Source: Dehalococcoidia bacterium (GTDB lineage: Bacteria; Chloroflexota; Dehalococcoidia; Lucifugimonadales; CAJWER01). Taken from it: a stretch of 64,000 nucleotides of DNA. Shown here in pieces: positions 3,572-62,563 of the stretch. Under the pieces are notes generated by a model. That model ran no database searches. It worked only from the letters and a program-made list of their open reading frames with translations, and was not told the origin of the DNA. Every line of letters begins with the position of its first letter. The stretch's first letter is position 1. The stretch covers positions 255,824 to 319,823 of the forward strand of contig CBDCTY010000002.1 in assembly GCA_965222445.1 (NCBI GenBank), read 5' to 3'. The position numbers and the translations under genes were made by a program.

Positions 3572-3629
3572 CCGTCGTTCCCGCGCAGAGCCTGCCCCCC
3601 CGAGCAGTCGGGGGCGGGAACCAATCCCC
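3572..3629 (-). repeat. Solo core hairpin module, reverse orientation (beta-like)
   Basis: CCGTCGTTCCCGCGCAGAGCCTGCCCCCCCGAGCAGTCGGGGGCGGGAACCAATCCCC is the reverse complement of the GGGTTCCCGCC-CCCCCGACTGCTCGGGGG-CAGGCTCT.CGCGGGAA.GACGG module. Confidence 0.75.
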
Positions 3630-3693
3630 GGCCGCCGCCATAAGATCTGGGCGGCCGAGCAATTCCATCAGTTGGTGGGGCTTCCCTGTCTTA

Positions 3694-3846
3694 TACCAAT
3701 TAGGTGTGATGCCGCCATATATCCATGAACCTGGTTGCTATGCCCTTCGACAGGATCAGGGCAGGTTTACGGCAGTGACCGGGGAAGGCGGGTTACAAAC
3801 CCGCCGCTACGATTTGAATTGACGGCGTAGTCAAAATGAATTGGTA
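3694..3846 (+). mobile_element. MITE-B (153 bp): same outer termini as MITE-A, different interior
   Basis: TACCAATTAGGTGTGATGCCGCCATATA...ACGGCGTAGTCAAAATGAATTGGTA. Shares both ends with the copy at 39253-39450. Flanks are TTA/TAA (discordant). Confidence 0.75.
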
Positions 3847-3935
3847 TAAGCTAGACGGCCCAGACTGAAACGCGCCCGTTCCAGACATGTCACCCCCGTG
3901 ATGTCATTCCGAATGCAGTGAGGAATCTAAGGGGT

Positions 3936-4244
3936 TCAGTAGTCACCGTACCATTCGATTGACAGGTCTCTCCACCGAGGGTTGAGGCTCTCGATTAGCT
4001 CCTCTTTCTTGCTGCGACGCCAGCCTTTGATCTGCTTCTCCCGCGTGACTGCGGACGAGATGTCAGGAGTCTGTTCGTAGCAGGCGAGCCAGCTGATGTT
4101 GTATCTAGCGGTAAAGCCCGTCACCAACTTCTGTTTGTGTTCGTATACCCTTCTCACAAGGTCGTTGGTGACGCCTACGTATAGGGTTCTGACGCTGTTG
4201 GTCAGAATATATACCTAGTATTGCCGGCCTGAGCCCGCGGGCAT
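3936..4244 (-). pseudogene. GIY-YIG nuclease family (UPF0213-like) gene with in-frame TAG at 4215-4217
   Basis: Reverse frame reads MPAGSGRQY*VYILTNSVRTLYVGVTNDLVRRVYEHKQKLVTGFTARYNISWLACYE...REKQIKGWRRSKKEELI. The GIY...YVG motif lies upstream of the track ORF (3936-4157) and after an in-frame stop. Lower GC than its surroundings. Confidence 0.6.
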
Positions 4245-4252
4245 GGGCCTTA

Positions 4253-4352
4253 TACCAAGTCACCGTGATGCCGCCGTATATGTGCGGCCAGGGAGTGGGT
4301 TCCCGCCTTCGCGGGAATGACGGATTTACGGCGCGCTCAAAATAAATTGGTA
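4253..4352 (+). mobile_element. MITE-A, short form (100 bp, lacks inner hairpin)
   Basis: TACCAAGTCACCGTGATGCC...GGGTTCCCGCCTTCGCGGGAATGACGG...AAATTGGTA. Flanked by TTA (4250-4252) and TTA (4353-4355). Confidence 0.9.
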
Positions 4353-4416
4353 TTACTCCCAAGTTGGGGGACGTTATTGGTGTGGATTACCCTTCAATAC
4401 TAAGGGTATTGGACTG

Positions 4417-59753: not shown

Positions 59754-60068
59754 ATGGCAAGATTCTTCTTCGAACGAGAGTGCAGGACCCCGTATTCAGA
59801 GTGTTACACGGTCCTGGACGACGACGATCCAATAGGCCGCGTGGACATACACTTCGCCGAGGTGATGATCCACTCCACGGTGAGCATCGGCGAGAGCCTC
59901 ACGAACGACGACATCCAGGACCTGATCGACGCAATCGACCGTGAGCTGCTGGACGCTATGGGCATCGTAAAGCAGGAGCTCGTGATCCACGTGCACCAGG
60001 GGCGCGACCTGGGCGTCTTCACCACGCGGGGCTTCGAGGGCAACGGCGGCCACGAGCGCCTGAACTAA
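59754..60068 (+). CDS. Hypothetical protein (104 aa)
   Basis: MARFFFERECRTPYSECYTVLDDDDPIGRVDIHFAE.... Its TAA stop (60066-60068) doubles as the left target duplication of the following MITE. Confidence 0.45.
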   Translation: MARFFFERECRTPYSECYTVLDDDDPIGRVDIHFAEVMIHSTVSIGESLTNDDIQDLIDAIDRELLDAMGIVKQELVIHVHQGRDLGVFTTRGFEGNGGHERLN

Positions 60069-60191
60069 TACCAGTTCGCTGTGATGCCGCCGTATATGTG
60101 CGGCCAGGGAGTGGGTTCCCGCCCCCGACTGCTCGGGGGCAGGCTCTTCGCGGGAATGACGGCTTTACGGCGCGCTCAAAACGAAAAGGTA
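60069..60191 (+). mobile_element. MITE-A, long form (123 bp), beta hairpin
   Basis: TACCAGTTCGCTGTGATGCC...CCCCCGACTGCTCGGGGG...GAAAAGGTA. TAA on both sides; shares TAA 60192-60194 with the next copy. Confidence 0.9.
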
Positions 60192-60194
60192 TAA

Positions 60195-60317
60195 TACCAA
60201 GTCACCGTGATGCCGCCGTATATGTGTGGCCAAGGAGTGGGTTCCCGCCCCCGACTGCTCGGGGGCAGGCTCTTCGCGGGAATGACGGCTTTACGGCGCG
60301 CTCAAAACGAAATGGTA
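60195..60317 (+). mobile_element. MITE-A, long form (123 bp), beta hairpin
   Basis: Head-to-tail with the previous copy. Flanked by TAA (60192-60194) and TAA (60318-60320). Confidence 0.9.
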
Positions 60318-60347
60318 TAACTCCCCGCTTGGGCTGAGCGCCGGGCA

Positions 60348-62357
60348 TCAGGACGCGTGGACGAAGAGCCCCACCCTGCGCCACAGGTCCACTCCCTGCA
60401 GCCGCAGAGTGACGACCTCGCCGGAGGCGACAGATCTCGGCAGCTCCGCCCGGACGCGGAAGGGGAACTCCACCAGCTCCAGGAGCGCGGTGCGGCGGCC
60501 TCCGCTGTCCAGCACGACCGCCTCGAACAGGTCCGGGCCGCCTGGAGGCATCCGCGCGCCCTCGAGATACTTCAGGAACCAGTACCTCTTCCGCCCCTCC
60601 TCGATCCTCGACAGCTCCCTCATCTGCACCTCGGCCCGCTGTGCGACCGATTCCACCTCGTCCGGCGCGTACAGGGGTTTGCCATCGGCCAGGAAACCGC
60701 CAATCTGCCGCTGTACGATCAGGTCGGGGTAGCGCCTCAGAGGGGACGTCGCCTGGAGATACGCGCTCACGCCGAGCCCATCGTGCGCCATCGGCTCCGT
60801 GGATACTCGCGCCGCCTGCATCCGTCGGGCGACGCTGTAGCGCGTCATAAGCGGCGTGGCCCGCTCGTCGAGCCCAGACAGGCCCGGCATGTCCGAAAGG
60901 TCCGGGCGCCGCTGGGACCGGTACACGGCGGGCAGCCCGTTCTCGGAGCAGAACCGGGCAAGGAGCGAGTTGCACAGTATCATCAGCTCGGCCACTATCT
61001 GATTGCCGGGCGACGAGCGGTCCCGCAGGCTGACCTCGACCTCCCCCGACGCCCGGACCTTGACGCTCATCTCATGCTGGTCTATGTTGACGGCCCCCTG
61101 CTTCTCGCGCTTGAGTCGAAGGGCGTTGGCTAGGCGGCACAGCCCCTCGATCATCGGGCGCCGGCGCCCCCCTGTCTGCACCACCGCATCGACCTCCTCG
61201 TATGAGAGGGCCGCGGCGCTCCTGATCGTCGACGGCACCACATGCCAGCTAGACACGTCTCCTTCTCCGGTCAACTCCGCAACCAAGCTGACCGCCAGCC
61301 GCTCCTCGCCCGGGTCCAGGCTTCCCGCGCCCCTCGTAAGGGCATCGGGAAGCATCGGTATGGTGCGCTCCGGGAGGTAGAGGCTCGCCATGCGCCGGTC
61401 CGCCTCCCGGTCCATCGGCCCCGCTCGAGGCGCAAGCGCCCCCGCGTCCGCGATGTGCACTCCGAGCCGGTAGCCGGACTCCAGGACCTCCAGGGAGAGG
61501 GCGTCGTCCCTGTCGGTCGTCTCCTCGTCGTCGATCGTGACCGCGTCGAGGTGGGTGAGGTCCTCCCTGTCCGACCCGCTCGGCGCGAAGGCCGCGGCTA
61601 TTGCCTGTCCCTCCTCCAGCGCCTCGGACGGGAAGTCCGAACGAATCCCCGCCCTTCGGAGCTCCAGGGACTCGTCCGGGCCGAATACGCCGGAGCTCAC
61701 CAGCATCTCGAAGCAGGCACGCTGGAGGTCGCGAGTCGCCGGCGACGACGCCTCCACCAGCTCTCTGGCCACCCTGCGGCGGGGAAGGTCCTCGCCGTGG
61801 ACGGCGTAGCCGACCAGCACATCGACCAGGGACTCCTGGTGGGGGCTCATAGCCTCGGGGAGCCGGCCTGCGGACATGGCATCGACCAGCCCCCGCGCGT
61901 CCCGCGCGTTCTCGGCCTCGCGCCGCCGCCTCTCCAGCAGGTTCTCATGGTCTTCCCGCGTTCGCGGCCTGTACTTCCCCGTGCCGCTCAAGAAGAGGTC
62001 GGTCGCTCGTTCTAGGCAGAGGAGCAGCGCCGTGAGTTCCAGGGCCCCCGGACTCGCTGGCCAGTAGAGCTCGGCCAGATCCTCCAGCGAGGACTCCTCC
62101 TGCTCGTCGGTAAGGACGTCCCACACCTCTGAGAGGTCGATCTCACTGGATGCGTCCCTGGCGTTGTCGCAAAACTCCTCGAAGCGCTCCGCCTCATCCG
62201 CCAGAACGCCGGTAGTGAGCATGACCCGCTCGGAAGGAATTCGGGCAACCTTATTCCTACCGAGGAGAACGGAAACTCGCCCGTTCCGCTCTTCACGGAA
62301 ACGGACGATTGTCACCCCACCACTCAGGCGGGCAACTAGGATTTCGCCCGGAAGCAT
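60348..62357 (-). CDS. rnr: RNB-domain 3'-5' exoribonuclease (RNase R/RNase II family)
   Basis: 669 aa with the RNB catalytic block (AVTIDDEETTDRDDALSLE), later RNB motifs and a C-terminal S1-like region. Confidence 0.8.
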   Translation of the reverse strand: MLPGEILVARLSGGVTIVRFREERNGRVSVLLGRNKVARIPSERVMLTTGVLADEAERFEEFCDNARDASSEIDLSEVWDVLTDEQEESSLEDLAELYWPASPGALELTALLLCLERATDLFLSGTGKYRPRTREDHENLLERRRREAENARDARGLVDAMSAGRLPEAMSPHQESLVDVLVGYAVHGEDLPRRRVARELVEASSPATRDLQRACFEMLVSSGVFGPDESLELRRAGIRSDFPSEALEEGQAIAAAFAPSGSDREDLTHLDAVTIDDEETTDRDDALSLEVLESGYRLGVHIADAGALAPRAGPMDREADRRMASLYLPERTIPMLPDALTRGAGSLDPGEERLAVSLVAELTGEGDVSSWHVVPSTIRSAAALSYEEVDAVVQTGGRRRPMIEGLCRLANALRLKREKQGAVNIDQHEMSVKVRASGEVEVSLRDRSSPGNQIVAELMILCNSLLARFCSENGLPAVYRSQRRPDLSDMPGLSGLDERATPLMTRYSVARRMQAARVSTEPMAHDGLGVSAYLQATSPLRRYPDLIVQRQIGGFLADGKPLYAPDEVESVAQRAEVQMRELSRIEEGRKRYWFLKYLEGARMPPGGPDLFEAVVLDSGGRRTALLELVEFPFRVRAELPRSVASGEVVTLRLQGVDLWRRVGLFVHAS

Positions 62358-62440
62358 AGTCCCTCGATTCTAGCATCCTGCCCGAAGTGGGGAGAGATCA
62401 GGCGGGGGGCTCTTACCTCTTCCCCGAGGGGGAAGACTGA

Positions 62441-62563
62441 TACCAATTTGGCGTGATGCCGCCATATATGTGCGGCCAGGGAGTGGGTTCCCGCCCCCGA
62501 CTGCTCGGGGGCAGGCTCTTCGCGGGAATGACGGCTTTACGGTGCGCTCAAAATGAATTGGTA
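62441..62563 (+). mobile_element. MITE-A, long form (123 bp), beta hairpin
   Basis: TACCAATTTGGCGTGATGCCGCCATATATG...GAATTGGTA. Flanked by TGA (62438-62440) and TGA (62564-62566). Confidence 0.9.

Follow-up and report, generated by a model that had tools for sequence, protein, structure and literature searches.

A hairpin repeat resembling the Neisseria NTS/dRS3 motif carries a loop insert and is the cargo of MITE-like elements in a Dehalococcoidia genome

Positions 255,824 to 319,823 of contig CBDCTY010000002.1 (assembly GCA_965222445.1), a stretch of 64,000 nt from a Dehalococcoidia bacterium that we refer to as the window, contain a hairpin module that recurs both on its own and inside several families of small repeats resembling miniature inverted-repeat transposable elements (MITEs). 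A previous inspection without database searches (the sequence-only reading) had described this module as a nested hairpin reused by unrelated termini. Our analysis indicates that it is probably a repetitive extragenic palindromic (REP) sequence of the CGTC-1 type, corresponding to the NTS repeat of Neisseria and belonging to the 'Ssn-related motifs' (SRMs), which bears an insert in its loop, has been multiplied as cargo of MITEs, and whose arms would be kept complementary through recognition by a nuclease of the Ssn type. Counts refer to the window unless the host sample is named. The latter comprises the window and ~0.7 Mb of the same genome (0.76 Mb in all, ~18% of the genome), i.e. at least 84 further 8-kb blocks of the metagenome-assembled genome (MAG) CBDHCU01, which came from a pattern scan of species-representative genomes and are biased towards motif-containing blocks; in this MAG, the window is the reverse complement of positions 1,333,159-1,397,158 of contig_6. 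The strand assigned to a feature is the one bearing the forward, CGTC-first motif.

On the opposite strand, the core of the module reads CGTC-ATTCCCGC-GAAG-GCGGGAAC-CCA. It thereby displays the features that define CGTC-1 REPs, namely the CGTC tag, a 4-nt loop, the tail CCA and a stem of 8 bp that begins with AT. Most copies have A.C as first stem pair (seen as G.T on the opposite strand), and a minority has A-T. The CGTC-1 family includes dRS3 of Neisseria, and no dedicated transposase was reported for it; CGTC repeats were found in five phyla, Chloroflexi not among them, and described as mostly unassociated with other repeats and rarely clustered (PMC3733652). dRS3 is contained in NTS, and the wider class of such repeats constitutes the SRMs (Chenal et al. 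2025, Nat Commun; PMC11893778). SsnA, a small GIY-YIG nuclease with a single domain (GIY-YIG_unchar_3; about 100 aa), binds the hairpin as single-stranded DNA only and on the forward strand only, does not bind it as RNA, and cuts a few bases upstream; the critical unpaired bases are GTC in front of the stem and C behind it, and Ssn tolerates removal as well as extension of the loop (PMC11893778). The minus-strand motif CGTCATTCCCGCGAAGGCGGGAACCCAC agrees with the NTS consensus CGTCATTCCCGCGMAVGCGGGAATCYRG at 26 of 28 positions, and four short forms match this consensus with two mismatches each, where none would be expected. Thirteen nested copies keep both NTS halves exactly (CGTCATTCCCGCG...GCGGGAAYCYR). 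The published SRM pattern, HGTCWYN(0-2)YYVSBRHN(0-5)WNVSBRGN(0-2)RNCYNB, which allows a loop of 0-5 nt, also detects the four short forms (~0.9 matches expected); a fifth match, at 62310, is not a module, and the nested forms are excluded because their loop exceeds 5 nt. The bases critical for Ssn are also the best preserved ones: 48 nested forms show no variation in the G-A-C-G columns, which correspond to the unpaired GTC tag, and hardly any in the G facing the trailing C, while 30 short forms do not vary in this facing G nor, within G-A-C-G, in either G or the A, and vary little in its C. Judged by these sequence matches, the outer hairpin together with its unpaired flanks is a CGTC-1 REP and the same repeat as Neisseria NTS/dRS3, i.e. 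an SRM. Two of the roles that had been considered for the module, a REP-like protein-binding site and a nuclease recognition site, are supported by this assignment, since a core of NTS/SRM type is a published Ssn substrate.

The module clearly exceeds chance. A pattern count for the outer hairpin TTCCCGC-N(0-30)-GCGGGAA returned 19 matches where 0.03 were expected. The two versions of the inner hairpin proved equally real (0-0.01 expected for each): alpha, CCCCGTATCGAGTACGGGG, is present in 12 copies, all on the + strand, and beta, CCCCCGACTGCTCGGGGG, in eight copies, seven on the + strand and one on the - strand at 3597. The bare short core TTCCCGCCTTCGCGGGAA occurs at 4300, 28573 and 43649, in agreement with the earlier observation that the 100-bp form of the most common carrier, MITE-A, lacks precisely the inner hairpin. 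When all copies were read with their flanks, the earlier positions of the MITE-A, family D and solo copies were all confirmed. Solo nested modules are located at 3572..3624 (+, beta), 6893..6944 (-, alpha with loop TCAAG) and 40568..40619 (-, alpha); all three had been listed before, but the inverted orientation of the first had not been recognized. The three solo short variants whose outer stems had been called compensatory are perfectly paired: TTCCGGC/GCCGGAA at 40893..40920 (-; earlier position 40894), TTCCCGA/TCGGGAA at 35572..35599 (-; earlier 35568) and ATACCGGC/GCCGGTAT at 33415..33442 (+, i.e. in the opposite orientation; earlier 33420). A further solo copy, at 35662..35713 (-; earlier 35661), is present as stated, but the alpha insert resides in the left arm of a variant stem, TTCCTGC/GCAGGAA, and not in its loop (GGGTTC-insert-CTGCCTTCGCAGGAACGACGG).

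Compensatory variation of the stems was assessed with 82 distinct module sequences from the window, the host sample and other genomes, with nested and short forms aligned separately. In the nested alignment (48 sequences), 98.4% of the cells are paired as compared to 45-57% when the partner columns are slid, a percentage inflated by the extraction of copies with at most one stem mismatch; three pairs show changes on both sides, and the covariation score is above that of 500/500 shuffles. In the short alignment (30 sequences), to which the same extraction threshold applies, 98.8% of the cells are paired and four of eight pairs have changes on both sides, comprising U-A/C-G, U-A/A-U, C-G/G-C and C-G/U-A/A-U. 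Compensated outer stems include CCCGT/ACGGG, CCGGC/GCCGG, CCCGA/TCGGG, CTCCCGC/GCGGGAG, TACCCGC/GCGGGTA and TACCGGC/GCCGGTA, each present in more than one copy, and at least six fully compensated stem types have thus been amplified, whereas mismatched outer stems are mostly singletons. Next to alpha and beta, rare versions of the inner hairpin exist, i.e. gamma (CCCCCGC-CTCC-GCGGGGG) and a beta closed by T-A. When sites were selected by the 9-nt tag only, a complementary left arm was found at 255 of 296 sites. Copies greatly outnumber independent events.

The last point is at the heart of the alternative that fares best, according to which there is no constraint on the hairpin and MITE bursts have propagated a few clonal lineages, the seemingly compensatory changes having arisen through template switching in palindromes. 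Correction of quasi-palindromes is an established mutational route, alpha and beta make up nearly all inner hairpins, and the MITE-A copies are nearly identical, which points to a recent burst and means that cell counts overstate independent events. However, the at least six differently compensated outer stems involve five stem positions and different flank contexts, and the unpaired GTC and C positions that are key to Ssn are the most conserved ones. In addition, a near-identical 27-mer has been kept between Chloroflexota and Gammaproteobacteria. Nor are the variants explained by two clonal lineages only, as the same architecture recurs with other paired inner stems in unrelated metagenome contigs (GC contents 0.51-0.71). 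We therefore regard absence of constraint as unlikely and favor retention of a hairpin that is recognized as such.

The nested and short forms differ in that exactly CCCGTATCGAGTACGGGGCAGGCT (24 nt) or CCCCGACTGCTCGGGGGCAGGCT (23 nt) is added between C and CT. This insert unit consists of a C-rich hairpin of 6-8 bp followed by CAGGCT and comes in the alpha, beta and rare gamma versions. With identical borders it also occupies a variant stem (35668) and a family C element (39787), and variant outer stems occur both with and without it. The paralogous segments L040 and L048 share 97-98% identity along flanks of ~330 and ~150 nt, and the 23-nt insert is precisely what distinguishes them; therefore, the 23-24-nt loop insert is gained or lost as a block. 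In the host sample, no empty-site version of its family C context was found. When folded as single-stranded DNA, the insert is predicted to form an 8-bp hairpin that borrows the top G-C pair of the outer stem. We tentatively propose, while considering it doubtful, that the insert is a mobile or templated unit that has repeatedly entered SRM loops after C and before CT. As it reshapes the hairpin that is read by the nuclease, it could provide natural tuning of, or escape from, Ssn cleavage. If true, insert and MITE carriage would allow the motif to be spread and maintained even after decay of the nuclease gene. The source of the insert could be a partial copy of the motif itself, as hinted at by the resemblance of a gamma form, CCCCCGC-CTGC-GCGGGGG, and of the metagenome versions to TTCCCGC-CTTC-GCGGGAA.

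The principal carrier of the module is MITE-A, which has imperfect terminal inverted repeats (TIRs) and sizes of 124 bp with alpha, 123 bp with beta and 100 bp with the bare loop CTTC. The window contains 14 copies, all assigned to the - strand. Alpha copies reside at 1092..1215 (SRM module 1134-1185; TAA target duplication on both sides), 26528..26651 (module 26570-26621), 28629..28752 (28671-28722), 34875..34998 (34917-34968), 40742..40865 (40784-40835), 46152..46275 and 48023..48146 (48065-48116); beta copies at 30960..31082 (31002-31052), 60069..60191 (60111-60161), 60195..60317 (60237-60287; in tandem with the preceding one) and 62441..62563 (62483-62533); and short copies at 4253..4352 (SRM 4295-4322), 28526..28625 (SRM 28568-28595; in tandem with the 28629 copy) and 43602..43701 (SRM 43644-43671). 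In the host sample, 62 of 72 MITE-A copies are bordered by matching TNA duplications (TAA 35, TTA 23, TCA 2, TGA 2). Moreover, the copy at 46152 is inserted at a TTA (46149) within a family C element, and this site is empty (TTA ~39741) in another family C copy. MITE-A is thus a true mobile element, i.e. a non-autonomous DDE transposon: bacterial MITEs with 3-bp TNA duplications are of the IS5-family/Harbinger-like type, and the 3-bp TNA duplication indicates an element of the DDE type that is mobilized in trans. No autonomous insertion sequence (IS) with MITE-A termini (TACCAAGT) was present in the sampled 18% of the genome. An abundant IS of 1.49 kb (L004 997-2483 and at least nine other host loci), which has 35-bp termini (GGGCGGGTTTCAAACCCCATCTGCTCCAACTAATT) and encodes a DDE_Tnp_1 transposase of 455 aa, is unrelated to MITE-A in termini and contexts.

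Several other repeats carry the same core. Family D copies are found at 36253..36392 (-, beta module 36324-36374) and 39503..39646 (-, beta module 39576-39626). The earlier claim that the core also occurs in family C proved correct for the 131-bp MITE with family C termini at 58247..58377 (-), which contains a whole beta module (58297-58347), but not for the two other elements named. The copy at 39655..39866 (no strand assigned), whose termini are GGCCTTTCCAAAGT, contains the alpha insert (39787-39813) with CAGGCTCT only and no outer stem, and 46321..46360 (-) is a chimera in which the left portion of family C is combined with the alpha insert and the right arm of the SRM only (TTTCGCCGGAATGACG). 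Classification by left and right flank assigned 60 alpha, 8 beta and 7 short cores to MITE-A, 0, 38 and 6, respectively, to family D, and 8, 4 and 3 to a third family, E; solo copies, which have a generic left and an unclassified right flank, account for 7, 5 and 32. All three core states, alpha, beta and short, occur between identical MITE-A arms, and different cores share arm variants. In addition, seven hybrids combine the left flank of one family with the right flank of another, joined exactly at the module. Termini are reused as well. The family C termini GGCCTTTCCAAAGT mostly surround an unrelated cargo in a 108-bp MITE, of which ~35 copies exist in the host sample (e.g. L001 103-210; in the window at 39655, 46078 and 58247), and rarer variants enclose the SRM module or the alpha insert. 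Likewise, termini of MITE-A type (TACCAATT...AATTGGTA) with TTA and TAA flanks enclose a different, REP-less cargo at 3694..3846 (no strand assigned); a part of the latter, GGCGGGTTACAAACCCGCC, is similar to the terminal repeat found on the 1.49-kb IS. Taken together, with covarying stems, at least four flank contexts and hybrids joined at the core, the data support the sequence-only reading in that the hairpin, and not the termini, is the conserved unit that unrelated flanks reuse.

Joining of hybrids at the motif would also be compatible with a role of the latter mainly as attachment or target site of an IS110-type recombinase or a phage integrase, with the loop insert as a footprint of such events. 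The insert always follows C and precedes CT, and dRS3 is a known integration target of filamentous Neisseria prophages. However, none of the ~250 modules sampled was found to be interrupted or adjoined by an integrase, prophage or IS, and the only abundant IS, that of the DDE_Tnp_1 type, has unrelated termini and contexts. We hold this possibility to be quite improbable; it would not exclude recognition by Ssn.

Homologues of SsnA provide a link between motif and nuclease. The NTS-ssnA-NTS architecture is widespread (PMC11893778). In the window, an open reading frame (ORF) of 92 codons with GIY-YIG signature (3939-4214) lies between inverted module pairs; apart from it, such pairs enclose ordinary genes. 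Extended to its ATG, the gene comprises 3936..4244 (-), and its product would start with MPAGSGRQY*VYILTNS..., an in-frame TAG (codon 10) replacing a Tyr that is common to all close relatives. Apart from this, the catalytic residues (GIY, YIG, Arg, His, Glu and Asn) are intact. A protein of 98% identity (P0001, on a public contig of 4.33 Mb) is also called truncated, and judged by its sequence the window gene is probably a pseudogene. Assignment to the ssnA family relies on Pfam PF01541, precomputed for the homologues, and on the conserved GIY, YIG, R, H, E and N residues; searches of NCBIfam and PDB with the nuclease returned no informative match. In Lysobacter (L053) and the metagenome contig L099, homologues with 46-51% identity are sandwiched between inverted arrays of a repeat identical to the present motif, which is CGTC-first upstream and tag-last downstream. 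Seven further loci, from Chloroflexota-like, Xanthomonadales and Desulfobulbaceae sources, have stems that change with the lineage. At all ten homologue loci examined, YGTC-tagged hairpins were found at or next to the gene, and at seven of the ten they are inverted on both sides. At several of these loci, the annotated protein extends C-terminally into the downstream repeat; in Pseudoxanthomonas suwonensis (L133) and Luteimonas marina (L139), the GIY-YIG proteins end with ...TGFPPTRE and ...TGSPPSRG, respectively, which is the translated repeat. The close relatives L117 and L125 are flanked by a different SRM subtype, TGTCATTCCGAGCGCAGCGAGGAATC, which, counted with the related variant ATTCTGAG, has 18 copies in the host sample. 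The same subtype (TGTCATTCCGAATGCAGTGAGGAATC) is located just 3' of the window gene at 3902..3927 (+) and is the motif nearest to it, the NTS-like modules being further out on both sides. In this genome, the further SRM subtypes TGTCATTCCGAGCGCAGCGAGGAATC and TGTCATTCTGAGGAGCGGAGCGACGAAGAATC (18 copies in the host sample) are found for example at L062 3191 and L052 7172, several of them inside other repeat units.

The host sample contains ~230-250 modules and 72 complete MITE-A copies, and 26% of its bases lie no more than 30 nt from a 14-mer that occurs three or more times. Among the matches listed, the module pattern is also present in two other Dehalococcoidia MAGs, a Lysobacter and a Halieaceae genome. 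The latter two carry the short form GGGTTCCCGCCTTCGCGGGAATGACGG in tandem arrays, with a 27-mer identical to that of the window. Independent nested modules were detected by a metagenome scan; their inner stems differ and are mostly paired (with one mismatch in several), and they have the spacer CA(G/A)GCT in common. No conserved gene neighborhood was apparent for these modules, the neighbors encoding an efflux pump, a radical SAM protein, UbiD and an enoyl-CoA hydratase; therefore, the module is not a gene-specific regulator. One such contig, L090, additionally gave hits for a Guanidine-I riboswitch (1794-1911, 86 bits) and NsiR1 (2941-2996, 42 bits), both unrelated to the module.

Of the 26 modules in the window, 24 are oriented alike, only those at 3572 and 33415 having the forward motif on the + strand, although the flanking genes lie on either strand. 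This near-uniformity, like the TNA duplications of MITE-A and the identity of the motif, had not been noted in the sequence-only reading. The orientation bias is local: in the host sample, the fraction of module pairs with the same orientation is 0.77-1.0 at distances below 2 kb, 0.63-0.85 at 8-30 kb and ~0.5 beyond 100 kb. Orientation does not follow the strand of the genes (rho 0.07). It correlates with GC skew of the repeat-masked whole sequence (rho 0.27, p=0.01), but not with skew at third codon positions (rho 0.13, p=0.24; sign agreement 29/56). A replication-linked bias would be plausible, given a strand-specific nuclease, but as the skew signal is not robust to third codon positions we do not claim a link to replication.

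These observations also bear on the idea that the core acts as a transcribed RNA element, i.e. as an intrinsic terminator, an mRNA-stabilizing hairpin or a small RNA, which the sequence-only reading had considered as well. Stable GC-rich hairpins in intergenic regions would suit such a role, and the closing G-T (G-U) pair is found on the + strand only. Nonetheless, the modules keep one orientation beside genes of either strand and occupy codirectional, convergent and divergent intergenic gaps alike, and in other genomes the flanking genes are unrelated. A terminator scan classified none of the 12 modules in 26-46 kb as terminator-like, the total for this region staying below the shuffled expectation, and no T-run follows the hairpin. 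Rfam 15 yielded no match in the window at gathering score and none at E<=1 over the nested modules of six other loci. Published Ssn does not bind the RNA form of its motif (PMC11893778), and an RNA function is highly improbable. Least credible of all is a classical REP or REPIN (a pair of inverted REPs) mobilized by a REP-associated tyrosine transposase (RAYT, a Y1 HUH enzyme) as in Pseudomonas and E. coli: although the repeats are palindromic, intergenic, high in copy number and sometimes arranged in arrays or dimers, and REP-like mosaics are known, their tag is CGTC rather than GTAG, no RAYT flanked by CGTC repeats has been reported (PMC3733652), the repeat-flanked gene in other genomes encodes a GIY-YIG nuclease, and a crude regular-expression screen of all ORFs for HUH and Y motifs in the 0.76-Mb sample (18% of the genome) was empty.

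Recognition by an Ssn-type nuclease would be what keeps the arms of the hairpin complementary while its sequence drifts in this genome. The motif, with or without the insert, is the central cargo of the 100-, 123- and 124-bp MITE-A elements and of at least three other repeat families. Since it is MITE cargo and hybrids are joined exactly at it, most present copies would have been multiplied passively, as hitch-hikers of MITEs and through recombination at the motif; nothing in the data analyzed points to a copying step driven by the nuclease. A number of findings count against this explanation, next to the inflated pairing percentages mentioned above. No cognate nuclease for the abundant NTS-like motif was found in the 18% of the genome searched, and the only ssnA homologue therein is the probable pseudogene, which is of the subtype whose relatives are flanked by TGTCATTCCGAGCGCAGCGAGGAATC. 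The remaining sites of the tag-only check have no complementary left arm; about half of them look like fortuitous 9-mers within coding regions, about one in four is a half-site of an array, and the others are degenerate or chimeric. Finally, the description as a nested hairpin is accurate as far as the presence of two hairpins is concerned, but less so for the outer one: in the minimum-energy fold predicted for the nested form on the + strand the outer stem is lost, and on the forward (nuclease) strand five of its eight pairs are predicted to be kept, stacked on the inner hairpin. Because the predicted fold gives up outer pairs, it is from the published loop-extension experiments, and not from the fold, that we infer that nested copies would remain Ssn substrates.

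Some further features of the region deserve mention. The segment 26524-28631, consisting of MITE-A, a gene for a GFO_IDH_MocA oxidoreductase and another MITE-A, is 93.5% identical to L028 553-2656 of a different contig; its left limit is the outer end of the MITE, and on the right the window copy contains an additional MITE-A in tandem. The two direct family D copies bracket an island of low GC content (0.56; 36400-39500) with a DUF3800 gene (36829-37575) and a gene for a PIN_4-domain protein (37627-39210), possibly an inserted cassette of defence type. A gene of the Uma2 family (putative restriction-endonuclease-like; 31116-31667) lies between the genes for hydantoinase A and B and adjoins a beta copy of MITE-A, and a second Uma2 gene is located at 39929-40480. 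A 'module' at 31621-31666, inside the former gene, was a false positive of a loose regular expression and was discarded.

Already known are the CGTC REPs (2013) and the NTS/SRM-Ssn system including the association of GIY-YIG genes with REPs (2025). New are the loop hairpin of 23-24 nt, which is missed by the published pattern, the carriage of the motif by TNA-duplicating MITEs and other repeat families, the host phylum, and the co-occurrence of a probably decayed local nuclease gene with motifs that are actively spread. Ssn nucleases and their motifs had not been described before 2025. Multiplication of the motif through MITE transposition and recombination would not need the nuclease, which bears on genomes with hundreds of copies. 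As the SRM pattern finds four of the ~24 motifs present in 64 kb, censuses of such motifs probably undercount. The nested copies would moreover represent natural loop-extended substrates, which so far have been engineered in vitro, and could be used to study specificity and for programmable cutting of single strands. The sampled, probable ssnA pseudogene in combination with still-spreading motifs offers a natural test of how far the repeats depend on the enzyme.

Among known systems, NTS/SRM-Ssn (PMC11893778) is alike in the motif itself (26/28 positions), in the orienting GTC tag and trailing C, in the hundreds of intergenic copies, and in the small GIY-YIG genes bracketed by inverted copies in other genomes, with an ssnA-family gene also present in the window. 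It differs in that Dehalococcoidia (Chloroflexota) are absent as host from the main text of that paper, in that most copies here have a loop hairpin of 23-24 nt, fail the SRM pattern and are embedded in MITE-like units, and in that the local ssnA is probably pseudogenized and of another SRM subtype. CGTC-1 REPs (PMC3733652) have the tag, the 8-bp stem starting with AT, the 4-nt loop, the CCA tail and heterogeneous stems with paired changes in common with the module, but here the first pair is usually A.C and the repeat resides mostly inside composite elements. The intergenic mosaics of Neisseria, in which dRS3 flanks RS elements (PMC1797815), likewise combine one hairpin with unrelated repeat families and recombination at the hairpin; in contrast, the hairpin described here is not bracketing but central in units with their own TIRs and target duplications, and the window has few long, regular arrays. 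REP/REPIN-RAYT systems and bacterial interspersed mosaic elements resemble the module by a single-stranded hairpin with an orienting tetranucleotide, by a nuclease gene between inverted copies and by paired stem changes, whereas the tag is CGTC instead of GTAG, the enzyme GIY-YIG instead of a Y1 HUH transposase, and dimers are not the main unit here. Nested palindromes in a GC-rich Chloroflexota genome are also formed by the GTAG-23 REPs of Thermomicrobium roseum, which reside inside small palindromes (PMC3733652); there a GTAG REP is inside a target palindrome, while here an untagged C-rich hairpin is inside the loop of a CGTC REP. With the bacterial TNA MITEs of the IS5-family/Harbinger-like type, finally, MITE-A shares imperfect TIRs, TNA duplications, a uniform size and a pair of filled and empty sites; it stands apart by its cargo, a predicted nuclease-recognition hairpin, and by termini that also hold another cargo (3694-3846).

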